A stretch of 64,000 nucleotides of DNA, from the NCBI GenBank assembly GCA_965223905.1, contig CBDCXV010000010.1, positions 2,116,941 through 2,180,940 on the forward strand, read 5' to 3'. How positions within the stretch are numbered: the stretch's first letter is position 1; every line of letters starts with the position of its first letter. Source of the DNA: Candidatus Latescibacterota bacterium (GTDB lineage: Bacteria > Latescibacterota > UBA2968 > UBA8231). Under the pieces are notes generated by a model. The model saw only the letters and a list, made by a program, of their open reading frames with translations, searched no databases and had not been told where the DNA came from. The translations under genes were made by a program, and so were the position numbers. Of the stretch, positions 16,498 through 20,323 are shown piece after piece.

Positions 16498-17490
16498 TTA
16501 CGGGCCGCTCACTAGGCGCGCTACCCATTGCGAGAACGTGTCCAAGACAGTCACGCGCCTGTTGGAGACAAAGCAGATACTCCTTCCGTCAGGCGACCAA
16601 GCCGGTTCCCTGTCGGTGGCCAGACCCTGCGTGATCCTTGACACGGCCGATCCATCAGCGGCCATACGGTAGATATTAAAACTGCCGCTTCGATCCGATG
16701 CGAAGGCAATCTCCATGCCGTCAGGAGCCCACGACGGCGCGACATCGTGGGCAGGATGATCACTGACATTCACCACTTCACCGCCGTCGGCGTTGACGAT
16801 GCAGATTTCGCTATTGCCGTAGCGACCAGTCTCGAAGGCTATCCGGGTTCCGTCCGGAGACCACGACGGGCGCATGTCGTAGCTTTCATGTTGGCTCAGG
16901 TTGCGGGCTTGCAATCCGTTGGCATCAGCTATGTAAACCTCGAGATTGCCATCGCGTGACGTCGCGAACGCAATTCGACTGCCATCCGGGGACCACACCG
17001 GCATGAGTCCATCACGCACAATGCGCCCTATCGTCTCTTGGGAAGCCCCGGATTCCATGGCGTAGATGTCGTAGCTACGCTTTGTGCCATCTGGCTCGAT
17101 GGTCAATGCGCTGAACACAACCTCAGCACCGTCTGGCGACCACGATGCTCCCCGCGGGTGCGTTACATGTGAGGGTAGCTGCAACGTCAGGTTTGTTAAA
17201 TCGTCAAGAGAGACAACACGGAACTCACTGGTCTTCCCGTCATACGCTCCGTACAGAATACGGCCACCATCCGGCGCCCAGGTCGGACTGGAGGCGTTAC
17301 CTGTTAGCTCACCCGAAACCCTCTCCAGGCTGGAGCCGTCCTTCTCCGCGCAGAAAACCCCCTCCGTTTGGTGCCCGCTTTGGTGCCCGCTGGCGGACCC
17401 CTGCCAAAGCACGGCTACTATCGCAAGTCCAATGGCTGAGACACGCGCATTTCTTCTTAGACAACCAAAGCTGTTTTTGTGAGTCTCCAT
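16498..17490 (-). CDS. TolB-like PD40/WD40 beta-propeller, secreted
   Basis: Signal peptide, then six P.W[SA]PDG repeats with IAF.S.R.G..EIY motifs; start METHK at 17490. Confidence 0.88.
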   Translation of the reverse strand: METHKNSFGCLRRNARVSAIGLAIVAVLWQGSASGHQSGHQTEGVFCAEKDGSSLERVSGELTGNASSPTWAPDGGRILYGAYDGKTSEFRVVSLDDLTNLTLQLPSHVTHPRGASWSPDGAEVVFSALTIEPDGTKRSYDIYAMESGASQETIGRIVRDGLMPVWSPDGSRIAFATSRDGNLEVYIADANGLQARNLSQHESYDMRPSWSPDGTRIAFETGRYGNSEICIVNADGGEVVNVSDHPAHDVAPSWAPDGMEIAFASDRSGSFNIYRMAADGSAVSRITQGLATDREPAWSPDGRSICFVSNRRVTVLDTFSQWVARLVSGP

Positions 17491-17508
17491 CGGTTGTCGT
17501 CCGGGCAA

Positions 17509-17558
17509 GACAACGGACAGGTGGCCCTCTACGCAGGTCGGGTCACCTGTCCGTTGTC
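17509..17558. other. Strong stem-loop
   Basis: gacaacggacaggtggccc (17509-17527) pairs with gggtcacctgtccgttgtc (17540-17558), 18/19 complementary, 12-nt loop. Confidence 0.75.
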
Positions 17559-17611
17559 GCTATTGTTTTTCGTCATCGCAGATGCAAACGGATTCCTTGA
17601 GCAAAGCAAAT

Positions 17612-17662
17612 AAACCAAGACGAGTGGAACTCACTGCATAGTCGCTCCACTCGCCCCGGTTT
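17612..17662 (-). terminator. Stem-loop just downstream of the peptide gene (terminator or mRNA stabiliser)
   Basis: cgagtgga(17621-28)/tccactcg(17646-53) plus aaacc/ggttt outer arms; followed on the minus strand by T-rich atttgctttg. Confidence 0.5.
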
Positions 17663-17678
17663 CTCGCTTCAATTTGAA

Positions 17679-17999
17679 TCAGTTATTATAGCACCTACAG
17701 GGACCACCGAGAGACCAGCATTCACCCACGTTGTGCCCGTTAACTAGGCACCACGTATACTTGCATCCCGCGTTTGTTACACAGGGGCCGCCATGGCGAT
17801 GGGGGCCATCAGGAGGGGTATTCGCCACAGATGCCGTGGGCCCACCAAGCATCACCGCGGCGGCAATCATGATGCTTGCCGTCCACGACAACGCCAAGCT
17901 ATTCTGCTGCTTCACGAATCCCGTTTCATCCGAAACGAAACTCCTGAGCACTCCAATAATCCGTCCCATCGGTTTCTCCTTTCGAATGATCCGTCCCAT
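17679..17999 (-). CDS. Small precursor: Flp-pilin-like leader, hydrophobic segment and six-Cys defensin-like core
   Basis: AAGGAG RBS before ATGs at 17999 and 17969. MGRII..LRSFVSDETG|FVKQQ, hydrophobic stretch, then CVTNAGCKYTWCLVNGHNVGECWSLGGPCRCYNN (106 or 96 aa). Confidence 0.8.
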   Translation of the reverse strand: MGRIIRKEKPMGRIIGVLRSFVSDETGFVKQQNSLALSWTASIMIAAAVMLGGPTASVANTPPDGPHRHGGPCVTNAGCKYTWCLVNGHNVGECWSLGGPCRCYNN

Positions 18000-18015
18000 C
18001 GGTTTCTCCTTTCGA
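17959..18015. repeat. Tandem duplication (27-bp identical unit, 30-bp period) covering RBS and start codon
   Basis: atccgtcccatcggtttctcctttcga at 17959-17985 and 17989-18015. Confidence 0.95.
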
Positions 18016-18165
18016 TGGTGGATAGGATAGAAACGAACTGCTCCACTGTAACCCAAGCTGGCCGAAAGGTCAAGTCCCACAAGTCCCAATTTTAATTGAA
18101 ACAGAGCACGGGCTCGGGTGAGTGGGTCAGCCTCTGAAATTGCTCTGGATCCATCATTCGATCTC

Positions 18166-19233
18166 TCAACCACCGAGCCACTCGACAAGCGCCACCAGGG
18201 GCGGCACCAGATTCCCCGCAAAGAACGCCGTCAAAGCCGCAGCTCCGGCGATCACCGGCACGAACGGAATCGCTTGCTCTACCTCCACCGCTCGCTGTCC
18301 CGGCGTTGACCCACCCCCCATTGCGGACCGAATGATTGCCGCTTGCTTTTCTGACAGGGGTCGTCCCGCTTCAATCTTGTGCTCCGCGCCGTCGGCCCCT
18401 GCCAGCTGGAGCCCATTGCGCAGGATCGCTCCCGCCCTCAAATACCGAACGGGAAACAGCTGCACATACGCACGGCTGGACCATCGCCGCACATACTGGT
18501 AGCCTGCCTCTACCAGCCAGGCCGCCGCCATCAGAATGGCATACTCCTGCCAAGCCGAGGTCGTGTAACCGACATACAGGAAGGCCATGGCCCCCGGGAT
18601 CACGACCAACGGCCAGTAGGGGACCTTCAGCAGTTTCTCCATCACGTGGTATCCGATCACGACCCCAGCGAAGGCCTCGAGGTACGACAGCGGCCTCTCC
18701 ATCACGATCACCGAGAACGCCAGGGTCAGCCCGGCCATACCTGCCAGCCCGACGGCCGCGCGAAAGAGTTCGGGTTTCGCTCCTTCCCCGCTTTCCCCCG
18801 CTTGCCACTGCCGTTGCCAGAACGGGACCAGCAACAACACCAACAGGTTACAAGCCAGAGTGTTCAGGATCAGGGCCACCGGGGGAGCGTGGAAAGAGAA
18901 CGGATCGGCGCTCGGACACAGCGTCGGGGGCAGGGCAGAAACCACCGCCCAGAAGAACCTGGCGTCGCCGGGCGCCCAGAAGCCGAAGACCATCAGGCCG
19001 AGGGCTATGACCAAACCGGTCAGAAGCAAAGCCACGACCCGACTCAGGGTCGTGACGTCGAGCGACACCATGATCAGCTGTCCGGCGATGCCGATCAGGA
19101 GCAGTCCGAAGGTGTAGCGATTCGGAACGAGCCGCACCGACAGATCGGTGTAGCTCAGGTAGAAACCCGCCGACAGCAGCGCCGTCAGCATGACGACTTC
19201 GGTCAGAAAGACAGGATCGTCGTAGAGCGTCAT
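18166..19233 (-). CDS. A24 family prepilin/preflagellin-type aspartic peptidase
   Basis: Polytopic membrane protein with the two catalytic Asp motifs SYTDLSVRLVPN and GFWAPGDARF, and a C-terminal IPFVPVI motif. Confidence 0.85.
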   Translation of the reverse strand: MTLYDDPVFLTEVVMLTALLSAGFYLSYTDLSVRLVPNRYTFGLLLIGIAGQLIMVSLDVTTLSRVVALLLTGLVIALGLMVFGFWAPGDARFFWAVVSALPPTLCPSADPFSFHAPPVALILNTLACNLLVLLLVPFWQRQWQAGESGEGAKPELFRAAVGLAGMAGLTLAFSVIVMERPLSYLEAFAGVVIGYHVMEKLLKVPYWPLVVIPGAMAFLYVGYTTSAWQEYAILMAAAWLVEAGYQYVRRWSSRAYVQLFPVRYLRAGAILRNGLQLAGADGAEHKIEAGRPLSEKQAAIIRSAMGGGSTPGQRAVEVEQAIPFVPVIAGAAALTAFFAGNLVPPLVALVEWLGG

Positions 19234-19808
19234 GACGACTTCTCAAGCAGCCGTTCCACCAGCGCCATGCCCTCTTCCACGCCGAGGCCGGCCCCGGCAA
19301 TCCTCCCATCCTTATCGAGCAGGTAGGTGGTCGGCACCGCAGCCGCGTTGTACTCACCGGCGATTGTGCGGGAGCTGTCACTCAACACGGGAAAGGCGGC
19401 CGCGACATACGCCTCCACCTTCCGCTGCTCGGCGCTCAGTTTATCGGAGTCCACATCGCCCGGGGTGATAAAGATCAAGCGGTCCTTCACCGATAGATCC
19501 CGATCGAGCAACAGCGTCTTCAACTCCTTGCAGTACGGGCAGGTCGGAGTCACGAATAGGAGAACCGAGTAGGAACCTCTGAGATCCGCCGGGCCCATGG
19601 TCTTGCCGTCCGTCATCGGAAGGCGGAAGTCGGGCGCTGCTGTCCCCTCAGTCAGCAGTCCGTGCCCGGGGCCCCCTTCGTGACTGTGCCCTTCCTGAAG
19701 CGTGCGCTGCACGCGCGACTCCTCGGGTGCGGGCTTCATCATCATGCCCACCAGCAGTACGATTCCCAGCCCGCCGCCCATCATGGCCATCTTGTGTTTG
19801 CTGCCCAT
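19230..19808 (-). CDS. Membrane-anchored thioredoxin-like redoxin (TlpA/MauD-like), CPYC
   Basis: N-terminal TM, G..APDF.L, FVTPTCPYC, VPTTYLLD..G; TAATG overlap with the upstream gene and ATGA overlap with the peptidase. Confidence 0.85.
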   Translation of the reverse strand: MGSKHKMAMMGGGLGIVLLVGMMMKPAPEESRVQRTLQEGHSHEGGPGHGLLTEGTAAPDFRLPMTDGKTMGPADLRGSYSVLLFVTPTCPYCKELKTLLLDRDLSVKDRLIFITPGDVDSDKLSAEQRKVEAYVAAAFPVLSDSSRTIAGEYNAAAVPTTYLLDKDGRIAGAGLGVEEGMALVERLLEKSS

Positions 19809-20323
19809 TACCGGCCCCCTCCTCTCATGTCCTGCCACTCTTCCAGAATCCGGTCGACACTGCGCACCCCCGTCGCCGCGGTGAGCACGATCCCGTCACC
19901 CCCGATCAGCAGAGTGCTCGGATGAACCTGCACACCGTACCGATCACCCACCTCGAACTGGCTGTCATGACCCGCGCTCACCGCTAACTCGTGCTGCGAC
20001 AGCTTGGTCCGAAGGTCCTCCGCCACGCCGACTCCAATCACCAGCACCGGCATCTGTGCTGCAGCCCGCTTCAAAGCCGGATAGGTCGCGTCACAGGCTG
20101 GGCAGGCCGAATTGGTGAAGAACAGCACGCCAGCCTCGGTCTTGACCGCGGTGGTCAAGGTGTGCAGAGAGACCGGGCGGCCGTCCAACCCAGTGATTTC
20201 GAAGCCGGGCGCCGGCAAGCCCAGCAGAGGCGCGAACGGCTGCGGCTCAATGCCAGGCGGATAGCCCGTATCGAGCCGCGCTGCCAGACTGATGCAGATG
20301 GCCAGCAGGAGGCCTGCCGTCAC
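19808..20323 (-). CDS. Thioredoxin-like redoxin (CPAC), possibly 5'-truncated
   Basis: GLPAPGF.I..LDG, FTNSACPAC, VHPSTLLIG.DG; reading frame stays open upstream to the repeat junction at 20386. Confidence 0.8.
   Translation of the reverse strand: MTAGLLLAICISLAARLDTGYPPGIEPQPFAPLLGLPAPGFEITGLDGRPVSLHTLTTAVKTEAGVLFFTNSACPACDATYPALKRAAAQMPVLVIGVGVAEDLRTKLSQHELAVSAGHDSQFEVGDRYGVQVHPSTLLIGGDGIVLTAATGVRSVDRILEEWQDMRGGGR

Follow-up and report, generated by a model that had tools for sequence, protein, structure and literature searches.

A candidate cassette for the maturation of small disulfide-rich peptides with pilin-like leaders in Latescibacterota

Peptidases of family A24 have two catalytic aspartates, the second of which lies in a G-x-G-D-like motif, and they are usually treated as parts of type IV filament systems. 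They are described as cutting after a Gly at the cytoplasmic face, and the class III signal of pilins is described as a hydrophobic tract of about 21 residues directly after this Gly, with Glu at +5 (PMC4471445). According to the same source, archaeal class III peptidases also have substrates other than classical pilins, and the localization of the sugar-binding proteins of the Sulfolobus bindosome still needs the type IV filament machine Bas (PMC4471445). In this study, we analyzed a stretch of 64,000 nucleotides from a Candidatus Latescibacterota bacterium (contig CBDCXV010000010.1, positions 2,116,941 to 2,180,940 of the forward strand), hereafter called the window, in which a long-form A24 peptidase is encoded next to two redoxins, named A and B, and a small Cys-rich precursor with a pilin-like leader. 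Our results suggest that these genes form, with reasonable though limited confidence, a cassette dedicated to the maturation of a small exported peptide rich in disulfides, which in this clade is predicted to be defensin-like (CS-alpha/beta, for alpha/beta folds stabilized by cysteines).

Other described systems resemble parts of this locus. Periplasmic thioredoxin-fold proteins make or shuffle disulfides, and MauD-type redoxins assist with the six disulfides in the small subunit of methylamine dehydrogenase. Peptides of the defensin type mostly have antimicrobial activity; the actifensins are reportedly a bacterial group of this type. A survey reported 74 bacterial cis-defensins, which fall into five classes and come from Proteobacteria, Acidobacteria, and Actinobacteria (PMC11561630). 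The His-Xaa-Ser (HXS) system of E. coli is reported as an antiphage system in which HxsA is matured by the radical S-adenosylmethionine (SAM) proteins HxsB/HxsC with HxsD, and the processed HxsA acts in the periplasm (PMC13128918). An earlier sequence-only reading of the window had known of no described system of the present composition, and literature searches on prepilin peptidases, class III substrates, HXS, peptides that ribosomes make and that are modified after translation (RiPPs), bacterial defensins, and Latescibacterota gave none.

The linkage of the genes across genomes carries our interpretation. The 8-kb flanks of the peptidase genes were annotated by phmmer and hmmsearch with the window proteins and a leader profile, built from the leaders of open reading frames (ORFs) of up to 200 aa. 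There were 35 peptidase ORFs of at least 330 aa in non-duplicate loci, and the 31 with at least 3 kb on both sides were counted, linkage meaning a homolog within 6 kb of the peptidase gene. The sequence-only reading had expected the peptidase to co-occur with the redoxins and with leader-bearing Cys-rich precursors, and this was borne out, as redoxin A was found near 27, redoxin B near 28, and such a precursor near 27 of the 31 peptidase genes. The gene list proposed earlier needed correction. It had missed a conserved fifth gene, coding for a CxxC protein weakly resembling FMN_bind, which was found near 23 of the 31 and is absent from the window copy. The PD40 propeller, which had been counted as a component of the system, could not be retained as such, with a homolog near only 2. 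Genes of the SW family of secreted proteins were found near 12. Three gene orders were observed: redA-redB-peptidase-precursor, as in the window; peptidase-CxxC gene-redA-redB-precursor; and a third type, where CxxC gene-peptidase-redA-redB has upstream of it precursors that are interspersed with large FG-GAP/FlgD_ig proteins. The linkage persists through these reshuffled orders and is the main evidence that the cassette genes work together.

Homologs of the peptidase were present in 9 of 61 relatives and, in a phylum sample, in 32 of 168 genomes and 7 of 49 genera (E<=1e-10), often as multiple copies together with fragments. A scan of one genome per species gave 25 loci, which by their record labels belong to Latescibacterota/Latescibacteria (21), Gemmatimonadota (2), Poribacteria (1), and Rhodothermales (1). 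In the 7.9-Mb genome of the window, exactly one ORF fits the leader profile, and it is the window precursor, adjoining the only intact peptidase gene. Another 15 leader-bearing ORFs were found genome-wide in five other cassette genomes. When distances were compared by hand from the coordinates, 13 of these 16 ORFs lay less than 7 kb from a peptidase gene or fragment, one lay at 11.7 kb, and two, both in genome G012, lay at 59 and 157 kb. Precursor genes may also occur in tandem, with three copies in L045. In one clade, they alternate with genes for proteins of about 720 aa that carry FG-GAP repeats and a FlgD_ig/type-IX-like C-terminal domain (L060 3136-5319 and comparable ORFs in L049, L054, L059, and L062-L071).

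The precursors have a conserved leader and a hypervariable core. There were 45 non-duplicate related precursor ORFs beside peptidase genes, and the shared leader end is [ES]-F-x-x-S-[ESD]-x-G, in which Gly is invariant and F and S are at least 90% conserved (35 leaders). F8 and S13 of the window leader are near-invariant positions in this set. The leader is near-identical in 14 database homologs of the window precursor (54-86% identity). Precursor pairs with 70-90% identical leaders had a median core identity of 26% (85 pairs). In a closer comparison of the window precursor with 12 of the 14 homologs (two with aberrant C-termini were dropped), the leader and helix were on average 83% identical versus 43% for the core (36% when the shared Cys are left out), and the frame of six Cys was kept among the 13 sequences. 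The contrast between leader and core is thus in line with the earlier proposal, as are the six Cys of the window core, which the translation places after the hydrophobic segment. The cores have about 35-70 residues and mostly eight Cys, compared with six in the window; 7- and 9-Cys members exist, and many cores end in CxC. A first iterative precursor profile, polluted by the large FG-GAP/FlgD_ig proteins, was dropped.

This pattern also bears on whether the small ORF is a gene. It is short, it lies in GC-rich DNA that is rich in spurious ORFs, and it matched no Pfam (E<=0.01) or NCBIfam model, all of which would fit a spurious ORF. However, the 14 homologs with their near-invariant leader and kept Cys frame, the 45 related ORFs beside peptidase genes, and the presence of a ribosome-binding site (RBS) make this explanation scarcely credible. 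In addition, a 279-nt contig from the RNA-library run X10 ('sponge metagenome') equals 17535-17813, which covers the core-encoding end of the precursor gene and the 3' flank, with no difference, and one contig from the RNA-library run X11 matches 16616-16908 inside the PD40 gene, also with no difference. These contigs are weak evidence and only a hint of expression, because DNA can be present in such libraries; the absence of cover over the rest of the stretch in both runs was not read as silence.

The core of the window precursor is probably a cis-defensin (CS-alpha/beta) domain. AlphaFold2 (AF2), run with the alignment of the close homologs, predicted the core at a confidence (pLDDT) of about 80 as beta-alpha-beta-beta (strand 57-59, helix 66-74, strands 81-84 and 91-94), with a hydrophobic helix at residues 24-40 and an uncertain leader. 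In a Foldseek search against PDB (E<=10), all 40 listed matches were plant, insect, or fungal defensins or scorpion toxins, with E from 0.3 to 9. The best were the gamma-thionins 1gps (probability 0.97, TM score 0.72, root-mean-square deviation 1.6 A) and 1gpt (0.95, TM score 0.65), with TM scores on the target. Similarly, 27 of 31 PDB matches of a sequence profile built from this alignment (E<=10) were defensins or related toxins (E 0.19-8); the other four were repeated RecA constructs and a designed repeat protein, on the leader region. The strict CS-alpha/beta Cys pattern, C...CxxxC...C...CxC, taken from the survey of cis-defensins (PMC11561630), was found in 11 of 15 close homologs and in 9 of 34 cassette precursors. 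Other precursor subfamilies have different Cys frameworks, and we read the cassette as a platform that may serve several disulfide scaffolds.

The likeness to known bacterial cis-defensins lies in the Cys framework of most close homologs, the predicted fold, and the structural neighbors of the model, and the genetic setting is different. The survey retained only peptides with a predicted signal peptide and without a transmembrane segment, and its main text makes no mention of Latescibacterota, peptidase, thioredoxin, or gene cluster (PMC11561630). In contrast, the domain in the cassette stands behind a pilin-like leader and a helix and has its own peptidase and redoxins.

The peptidase has sequence features of family A24. 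The window protein matched PF01478 over residues 19-129 (28.3 bits; cut-off, 26.5) and no NCBIfam model, and 12 of 12 aligned homologs matched PF01478 (best E 2.2e-10). Both candidate catalytic residues, D30 in Y-T-D-L..R.V-P-N and D90 in F-W-A-P-G-D-A, are invariant in these 12 homologs and at least 90% conserved in 19 distant relatives. The latter can be aligned over their full length at 15-30% identity, and both Asp are retained in them. The residue three before the second Asp is A, G, or S, not always G. In the AF2 model (pLDDT 72) there are nine long helices and strands at 257-319, giving a layout of an A24 core (19-129) followed by a C-terminal extension with a small beta-rich domain. 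A profile search of 1.84 billion representatives gave 2001 proteins at E<=1e-3, a number that fell to 702 at E<=1e-10 and to 73 at E<=1e-30; many relatives have about 350-385 aa and span the whole profile. The long form is shared with archaeal peptidases of the FlaK/PibD/EppA type. The C-terminal domain Arc_PepC of these enzymes was above cut-off in an archaeal relative of the window peptidase and was weakly matched by 1 of the 12 aligned Latescibacterota members, as was Arc_PepC_II. The genome of the window has only two A24 matches, the window gene and a frameshifted paralog. A predicted complex of peptidase and leader scored 0.28 against a mark of 0.32, with controls not run, and it was not used for or against binding.

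An A24 peptidase next to a small protein with such a leader could indicate a Flp-type (type IVb) pilin with a Cys-rich head, cleaved in a TadV-like manner and assembled into a filament or pseudopilus. The Tad/Flp pair of TadV/CpaA and Flp prepilin is similar in several respects: an A24 peptidase with two catalytic Asp, and a small substrate whose leader ends in acidic residues and Gly (DE.G-like, as in the Flp motif) before one hydrophobic helix. Moreover, 3 of 38 listed close relatives of the peptidase carry the source name 'Flp pilus assembly protein protease CpaA'. The Flp likeness proposed by the sequence-only reading held at the level of the motif, but not in the rest of the protein, as Pfam Flp_Fap was unmatched and a mostly polar stretch lies between the Gly and the hydrophobic run. 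In the window, MGRIIGVLRSFVSDETG is followed by FVKQQ, so the translation agrees with the earlier remark that the Flp Glu+5 motif is absent. The substrate further differs from Flp prepilins in lacking Tyr6 and in having an A.A-type site behind the helix and a hypervariable, globular Cys-rich core, and the peptidase is about twice as long, with an extra C-terminal domain.

The filament machinery was not found either. No match to T2SSE (PF00437) or T2SSF (PF00482) was detected in the genome of the window (93.6% complete, 11 contigs), and Flp_Fap (PF04964) had no match in this genome at E<=1 or in the ORF at E<=0.01. The same models were detected in 13 of 14 (T2SSE), 13 of 14 (T2SSF), and 6 of 14 (Flp_Fap) control genomes. 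None of the five other cassette genomes had T2SSE above cut-off, and two had sub-threshold P-loop matches. The cassette peptides are thus taken not to be pilins, because six cassette genomes are without a type-IV-filament ATPase above cut-off, and we consider the pilin explanation very unlikely. The cassette also differs from the bindosome: the organism is bacterial, no filament machine was found, and the substrate is a disulfide-rich mini-protein.

Support for a maturation cassette also came from a different domain of life. A metagenome scan with six distant relatives of the peptidase kept 80 loci, and Hxs genes adjoin the peptidase in 62 of them. With at least 3.5 kb on both sides there were 22 loci, 21 with Hxs genes and 19 with an HxsA4-type precursor. 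Two of the metagenomic contigs carry TBP and an archaeal MCM. In L117, the neighbors of the full-length peptidase matched HxsD, HxsD-like, HxsB, and HxsA4 above NCBIfam cut-offs, and the peptidase matched Arc_PepC above cut-off and PF01478 below it (24.2 bits). The HxsA4 leaders carry F-L-x-x-E-[ED]-G-K-I-S-K and a helix, with Gly invariant in 31 leaders, and some are close to the window leader (for example, L111 and L163). By hhalign, they fall in register with the leaders from Latescibacterota (probability 79%, E 1.5e-5, 42 columns). The cores are unrelated and the tailoring enzymes differ, whereas the leader type and the peptidase family are common to both; this is therefore independent support that the peptidase reads the leader. 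The earlier proposal of a leader-guided maturation module fits with such a related leader and peptidase serving radical-SAM-modified HxsA4 precursors on archaeal contigs.

The window itself is not an HXS locus. Its proteins matched no Hxs model, such matches being confined to the loci of the distant peptidase relatives, and no radical SAM, HxsD, or HXS-repeat genes were found among them with Pfam and NCBIfam; the tailoring enzymes are redoxins and the core is Cys-rich. In both systems, a small modified effector would reach its place outside the cytoplasm once its N-terminus has been processed. In the main text of the HXS report, the words peptidase, prepilin, and archaea are absent, and the bacterial HxsA described there has an ordinary-looking signal peptide (PMC13128918). 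Some archaeal HxsA4-type precursors are fused to a Hint domain (L162 7644-8447, L152 8992-9768, also L157 and L174; PT-HINT 44.1 and 34.8 bits, cut-off 27.7), and their sequences suggest self-cleaving effector versions. An HxsA4-like ORF (L123 4306-4737) ends in a long alternating Cys-Ala run with 21 Cys, possibly a simple-repeat artifact at the contig end.

The comparison also qualifies the RiPP-like pathway that the sequence-only reading had proposed. A precursor with leader and variable core was found, but proteolysis and disulfide formation are the only modifications encoded. The conserved neighbors in the cassette are only the redoxins, the weakly FMN_bind-like CxxC protein, and the peptidase, whereas radical SAM maturases accompany the archaeal HxsA4 relatives. 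This lack of tailoring in the cassette makes the label 'RiPP' doubtful.

GxGD proteases include signal peptide peptidases, and the polar stretch after the Gly leaves room for a different function of the window enzyme. Signal peptidase I might free the core at an A.A site, and the GxGD protease would then cut the leftover type-II-oriented signal anchor within the membrane or at its edge, instead of trimming the leader behind the Gly. An A.A-type site follows the helix in 27 of 35 Latescibacterota leaders, in accordance with the earlier suggestion of such a site beyond the hydrophobic segment, and the Gly lies 4-9 residues from the uncharged hydrophobic run in 35 of 35, often with Trp at the end, unlike in prepilins. 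However, clearance of signal anchors would leave the invariant F..SE.G motif and its Gly unexplained across two domains of life, it would give no reason for a dedicated clearing enzyme beside each precursor, and only 13 of 31 HxsA4 leaders have an A.A site. We regard it as rather unlikely, and a peptidase that cuts the leader as the better reading.

The redoxins are consistent with disulfide maturation. Redoxin A matched AhpC-TSA (42 bits) and Redoxin (26.6 bits) in Pfam above cut-off, and a CxAC site is present in 29 of 31 homologs. Redoxin B matched AhpC-TSA (55 bits), Redoxin (40.3), and Thioredoxin_2 (29.1), all above cut-off, and the CPYC site is present in 20 of 31 homologous ORFs. MauD, ResA, and DsbE models were matched only far below the NCBIfam cut-offs, the best being MauD for redoxin A (44.8 bits; cut-off, 188.6) and ResA for redoxin B (47.9; cut-off, 170). 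The window redoxins resemble MauD-type redoxins and ResA/TlpA/DsbE oxidoreductases as predicted membrane-anchored periplasmic thioredoxin folds encoded beside a Cys-rich client, and differ from them in these low scores; no mau or cytochrome-maturation genes were found near the window cassette. The genome of the window has one DsbA match and no VKOR match, which does not help to decide whether the redoxins oxidize or reduce. The fifth gene of the cassette codes for a conserved CxxC membrane protein of about 200 aa, with sub-threshold FMN_bind matches in 2 of 4 members tested (E 0.0024 and 0.005), the motif R-H-D-I-A-C-x-x-C-R-D, and CxxC in 25 of 25 homologs.

Several observations weigh against a maturation cassette of this kind. 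With its mostly polar gap of 4-9 residues after the Gly and its missing Glu5, the leader departs from canonical class III signal peptides, and because of this departure the proposed cut site is an analogy-based guess. None of the individual fold or profile matches to defensins reaches significance (E of at least 0.19), and the window's own core fits the Cys pattern only as CxxxxC, not CxxxC. The PF01478 score of the window peptidase is just 1.8 bits over the cut-off. Its model had no Foldseek match in PDB at E<=0.001, the top rows being unrelated transporters, and its sequence profile had 0 matches in PDB at E<=1; because of this, the A24 membership rests on Pfam and the motifs. The window copy is bounded by a repeat and is without the FMN_bind-like gene that is present at 23 of the 31 loci. 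Finally, two G012 precursors are far from any peptidase gene, as given above, and two of the four G012 peptidase copies are surrounded by SW genes alone and lack a precursor or redoxin within 6 kb.

The last observation would also fit a variable region in which the true substrates of the peptidase are other proteins, such as the SW/CBM9-like paralogs, and the Cys-rich ORFs and redoxins travel along. Both of these G012 peptidase genes are full-length and lie inside SW arrays, SW genes flank 12 of the 31 loci, and the loci are rich in duplications and fragments and include a transposase-like neighbor. Against this, SW genes are absent from 19 of the 31 loci, compared with precursors present at 27, and SW proteins have ordinary N-terminal signals without F..SE.G. 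The gene set also survives in three orders, and in archaea the relatives of the peptidase are paired with another precursor, whose leader is of the same kind. Such hitch-hiking is therefore judged unlikely, and a maturation cassette remains the preferred reading.

The features of the cassette and its surroundings are listed in Table 1. The ORF list confirmed the five co-oriented ORFs that had been reported, all on the minus strand. The overlaps were read directly in the sequence: the stop codon of redoxin A and the ATG of redoxin B share TAATG at 19808, and the stop codon of redoxin B and the ATG of the peptidase gene share ATGA at 19233. From these overlaps, redA, redB, and the peptidase gene are translationally coupled. 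The precursor has its own RBS, AGGAGA, 6 nt upstream of the ATG, again as reported earlier. It has two in-frame starts, at 17969 (96 aa) and 17999 (106 aa, 10 extra residues), because a 30-nt tandem duplication copied the RBS and first codons. One of the two is most likely the real start, and the shorter form is the one matched by close homologs.

Table 1. Positions of the cassette genes and nearby features, in window coordinates unless another locus is named
Feature	Position	Strand	Remarks
Redoxin A, CPAC	19808-20323	minus	thioredoxin fold; N-terminal hydrophobic anchor or signal
Redoxin B, CPYC	19230-19838	minus	thioredoxin fold; N-terminal membrane anchor; likely start ATG 19808
Long-form A24 (GxGD-type) aspartyl peptidase, 355 aa	18166-19233	minus	PF01478 match
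Precursor leader, residues 1-17, MGRIIGVLRSFVSDETG	17919-17969	minus	from translation; ends at invariant Gly
Precursor residues 18-49: linker FVKQQNSLALSW, hydrophobic helix, PTASVA (A.A-type site)	17823-17918	minus	from alignments
Precursor core, residues 50-96 and stop codon, six Cys	17679-17822	minus	predicted cis-defensin (CS-alpha/beta) fold
Tandem 30-nt copies (n=2, 93% alike)	17952-18011	minus	duplicate precursor RBS and first codons
Hairpin directly 3' of precursor stop codon	17603-17670	minus	from RNA fold
PD40 (TolB-like) beta-propeller, hydrophobic N-terminus	16498-17508	minus	accessory neighbor
SW-family secreted paralog (CBM9-like), first of array	15494-16381	minus	tail ...SWARIKASFGE
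Second copy of the ~600-nt direct repeat	20387-20966		bounds cassette upstream
FMN_bind-like gene, examples	L060 7373-7963; L054 9080-9736; L041 10199-10810; genome of the window, G000:C1:93882-94475

The hairpin behind the precursor has a folding energy of -44.7 kcal/mol (z = -6.8), equaled by 0 of 200 shuffles, and is possibly a terminator or stabilizer; a simple terminator scan did not call it. A promoter scan gave one promoter-like site at 18073-18045, upstream of the precursor, which carries little weight as shuffles also give one. No Rfam match was found in 14000-22000, and PADLOC defense models had no match among 8 proteins. Two strain variants were seen: in DNA run X3 there is an 18-nt insertion behind 17456, in the N-terminus of the PD40 protein, and in a contig of run X5 the 114 nt upstream of the precursor start (17973-18088) are replaced by 72 other letters. 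The PD40 protein matched PD40 (E 6.9e-42) and the TolB model TIGR02800 below its cut-off (188 bits; cut-off, 343), and it is called secreted solely from its hydrophobic N-terminus.

SW genes are a frequent neighbor in the family-level clade (12 of 31 loci). In the window they form an array (15494-16381, 20996-21616, 22007-22804, the split copy 22853-23420, 23604-24683, and 40350-41373), and in G012 they flank all four peptidase copies. The paralogs carry a signal at the N-terminus, share the conserved start H-x-G-D-R-V-Y-P, and have ...SW[AG]RIKA[ST]F... as their C-terminal tail. They matched no Pfam model (15494-16381 not even at E 0.5) and no NCBIfam model, and a protein language-model atlas placed them with CBM9_1-bearing clusters at 0.96 (Latescibacterota, Gemmatimonadota, and Poribacteria). 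A C-terminal sorting role for the SWARIKASFGE tail was considered and dropped, the tail being without a hydrophobic helix.

The window cassette may be a partly decayed or impaired copy. A direct repeat of about 600 nt is present at 14880-15461 and 20387-20966 (97-99% identical), with the cassette and one SW gene between the copies. Two pieces are duplicated in it, the 3' end of the 484-aa gene at 13907-15361 (weak GH32_N match) and the spacer before an SW gene. Its second copy begins where relatives carry the FMN_bind-like gene. This gene may act in trans from elsewhere in the genome. A homolog with 85% identity lies on another contig (L187 7883-8951; Table 1), where it adjoins a PD40 3' fragment 84.5% identical to that of the window, followed by SW genes. 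A further locus, L009 9297-11074 (G000:C11), contains transposase-like ORFs and, next to them, a frameshifted peptidase gene with a CRAC redoxin. In comparisons of the window cassette with these two paralogous loci, megablast gave no match, and blastn gave 84.5% for the 3' part of PD40 and 67-74% for the peptidase. The genome of the window thus has two decayed paralogous cassettes, and the family is therefore in flux there.

Taken together, the comparisons are consistent with the following model. The 96-aa precursor would insert in the inner membrane via its single hydrophobic helix, keeping its N-terminus inside and exposing the Cys-rich core to the periplasm. The A24 peptidase would remove the 17-residue leader from the cytoplasmic side without type IV filament machinery, and the most probable cut would follow the Gly that is invariant in F-V-S-D-E-T-G. 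The membrane-anchored redoxins A and B would form or shuffle the three core disulfides, and in most relatives the third CxxC protein, FMN_bind-like, might join this step; the genome of the window encodes one elsewhere. The product might stay tethered by its helix, or signal peptidase I might release the core at PTASVA|NT.

The most likely role of the product would be that of an extracytoplasmic conflict effector, in antimicrobial action or envelope defense, and this is the weakest part of our reading. The hypervariable cores, the tandem precursors, the patchy distribution, and the many fragments and paralogs are traits that would suit a conflict system. More speculatively, and as a possibility that we would not yet favor, Bacteria and Archaea might share a platform in which a pilin-like leader (F..[SE]E.G, linker, and helix) and a pilus-free long-form A24 peptidase launch unrelated extracytoplasmic effectors. 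In archaea these would be radical-SAM-modified HxS-repeat proteins, and in Latescibacterota hypervariable disulfide mini-proteins. The latter might then be, in a diderm bacterium, the first peptides of the defensin type to have a dedicated biosynthetic pathway, and they would act as conflict effectors at the envelope, with either an antiphage function like that of HXS or an antimicrobial one.

These results bear on how the A24 family is viewed. The subfamily of 702 representatives (E<=1e-10) appears to be filament-free and to act instead as the leader peptidase of small exported effectors. If this is true, an aspartyl intramembrane protease would join the known routes of peptide leader removal; in the main text of a 2023 review of RiPP leader proteases, the words prepilin, A24, and aspartic are absent. 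Bacterial defensin-like peptides would gain a biosynthetic context made up of leader, peptidase, and dedicated disulfide enzymes, and the archaeal findings would suggest how the HxsA4 form of HXS is processed. With its conserved leader and hypervariable core, the family should be easy to mine, and the cores would represent a natural library of disulfide-stabilized scaffolds.

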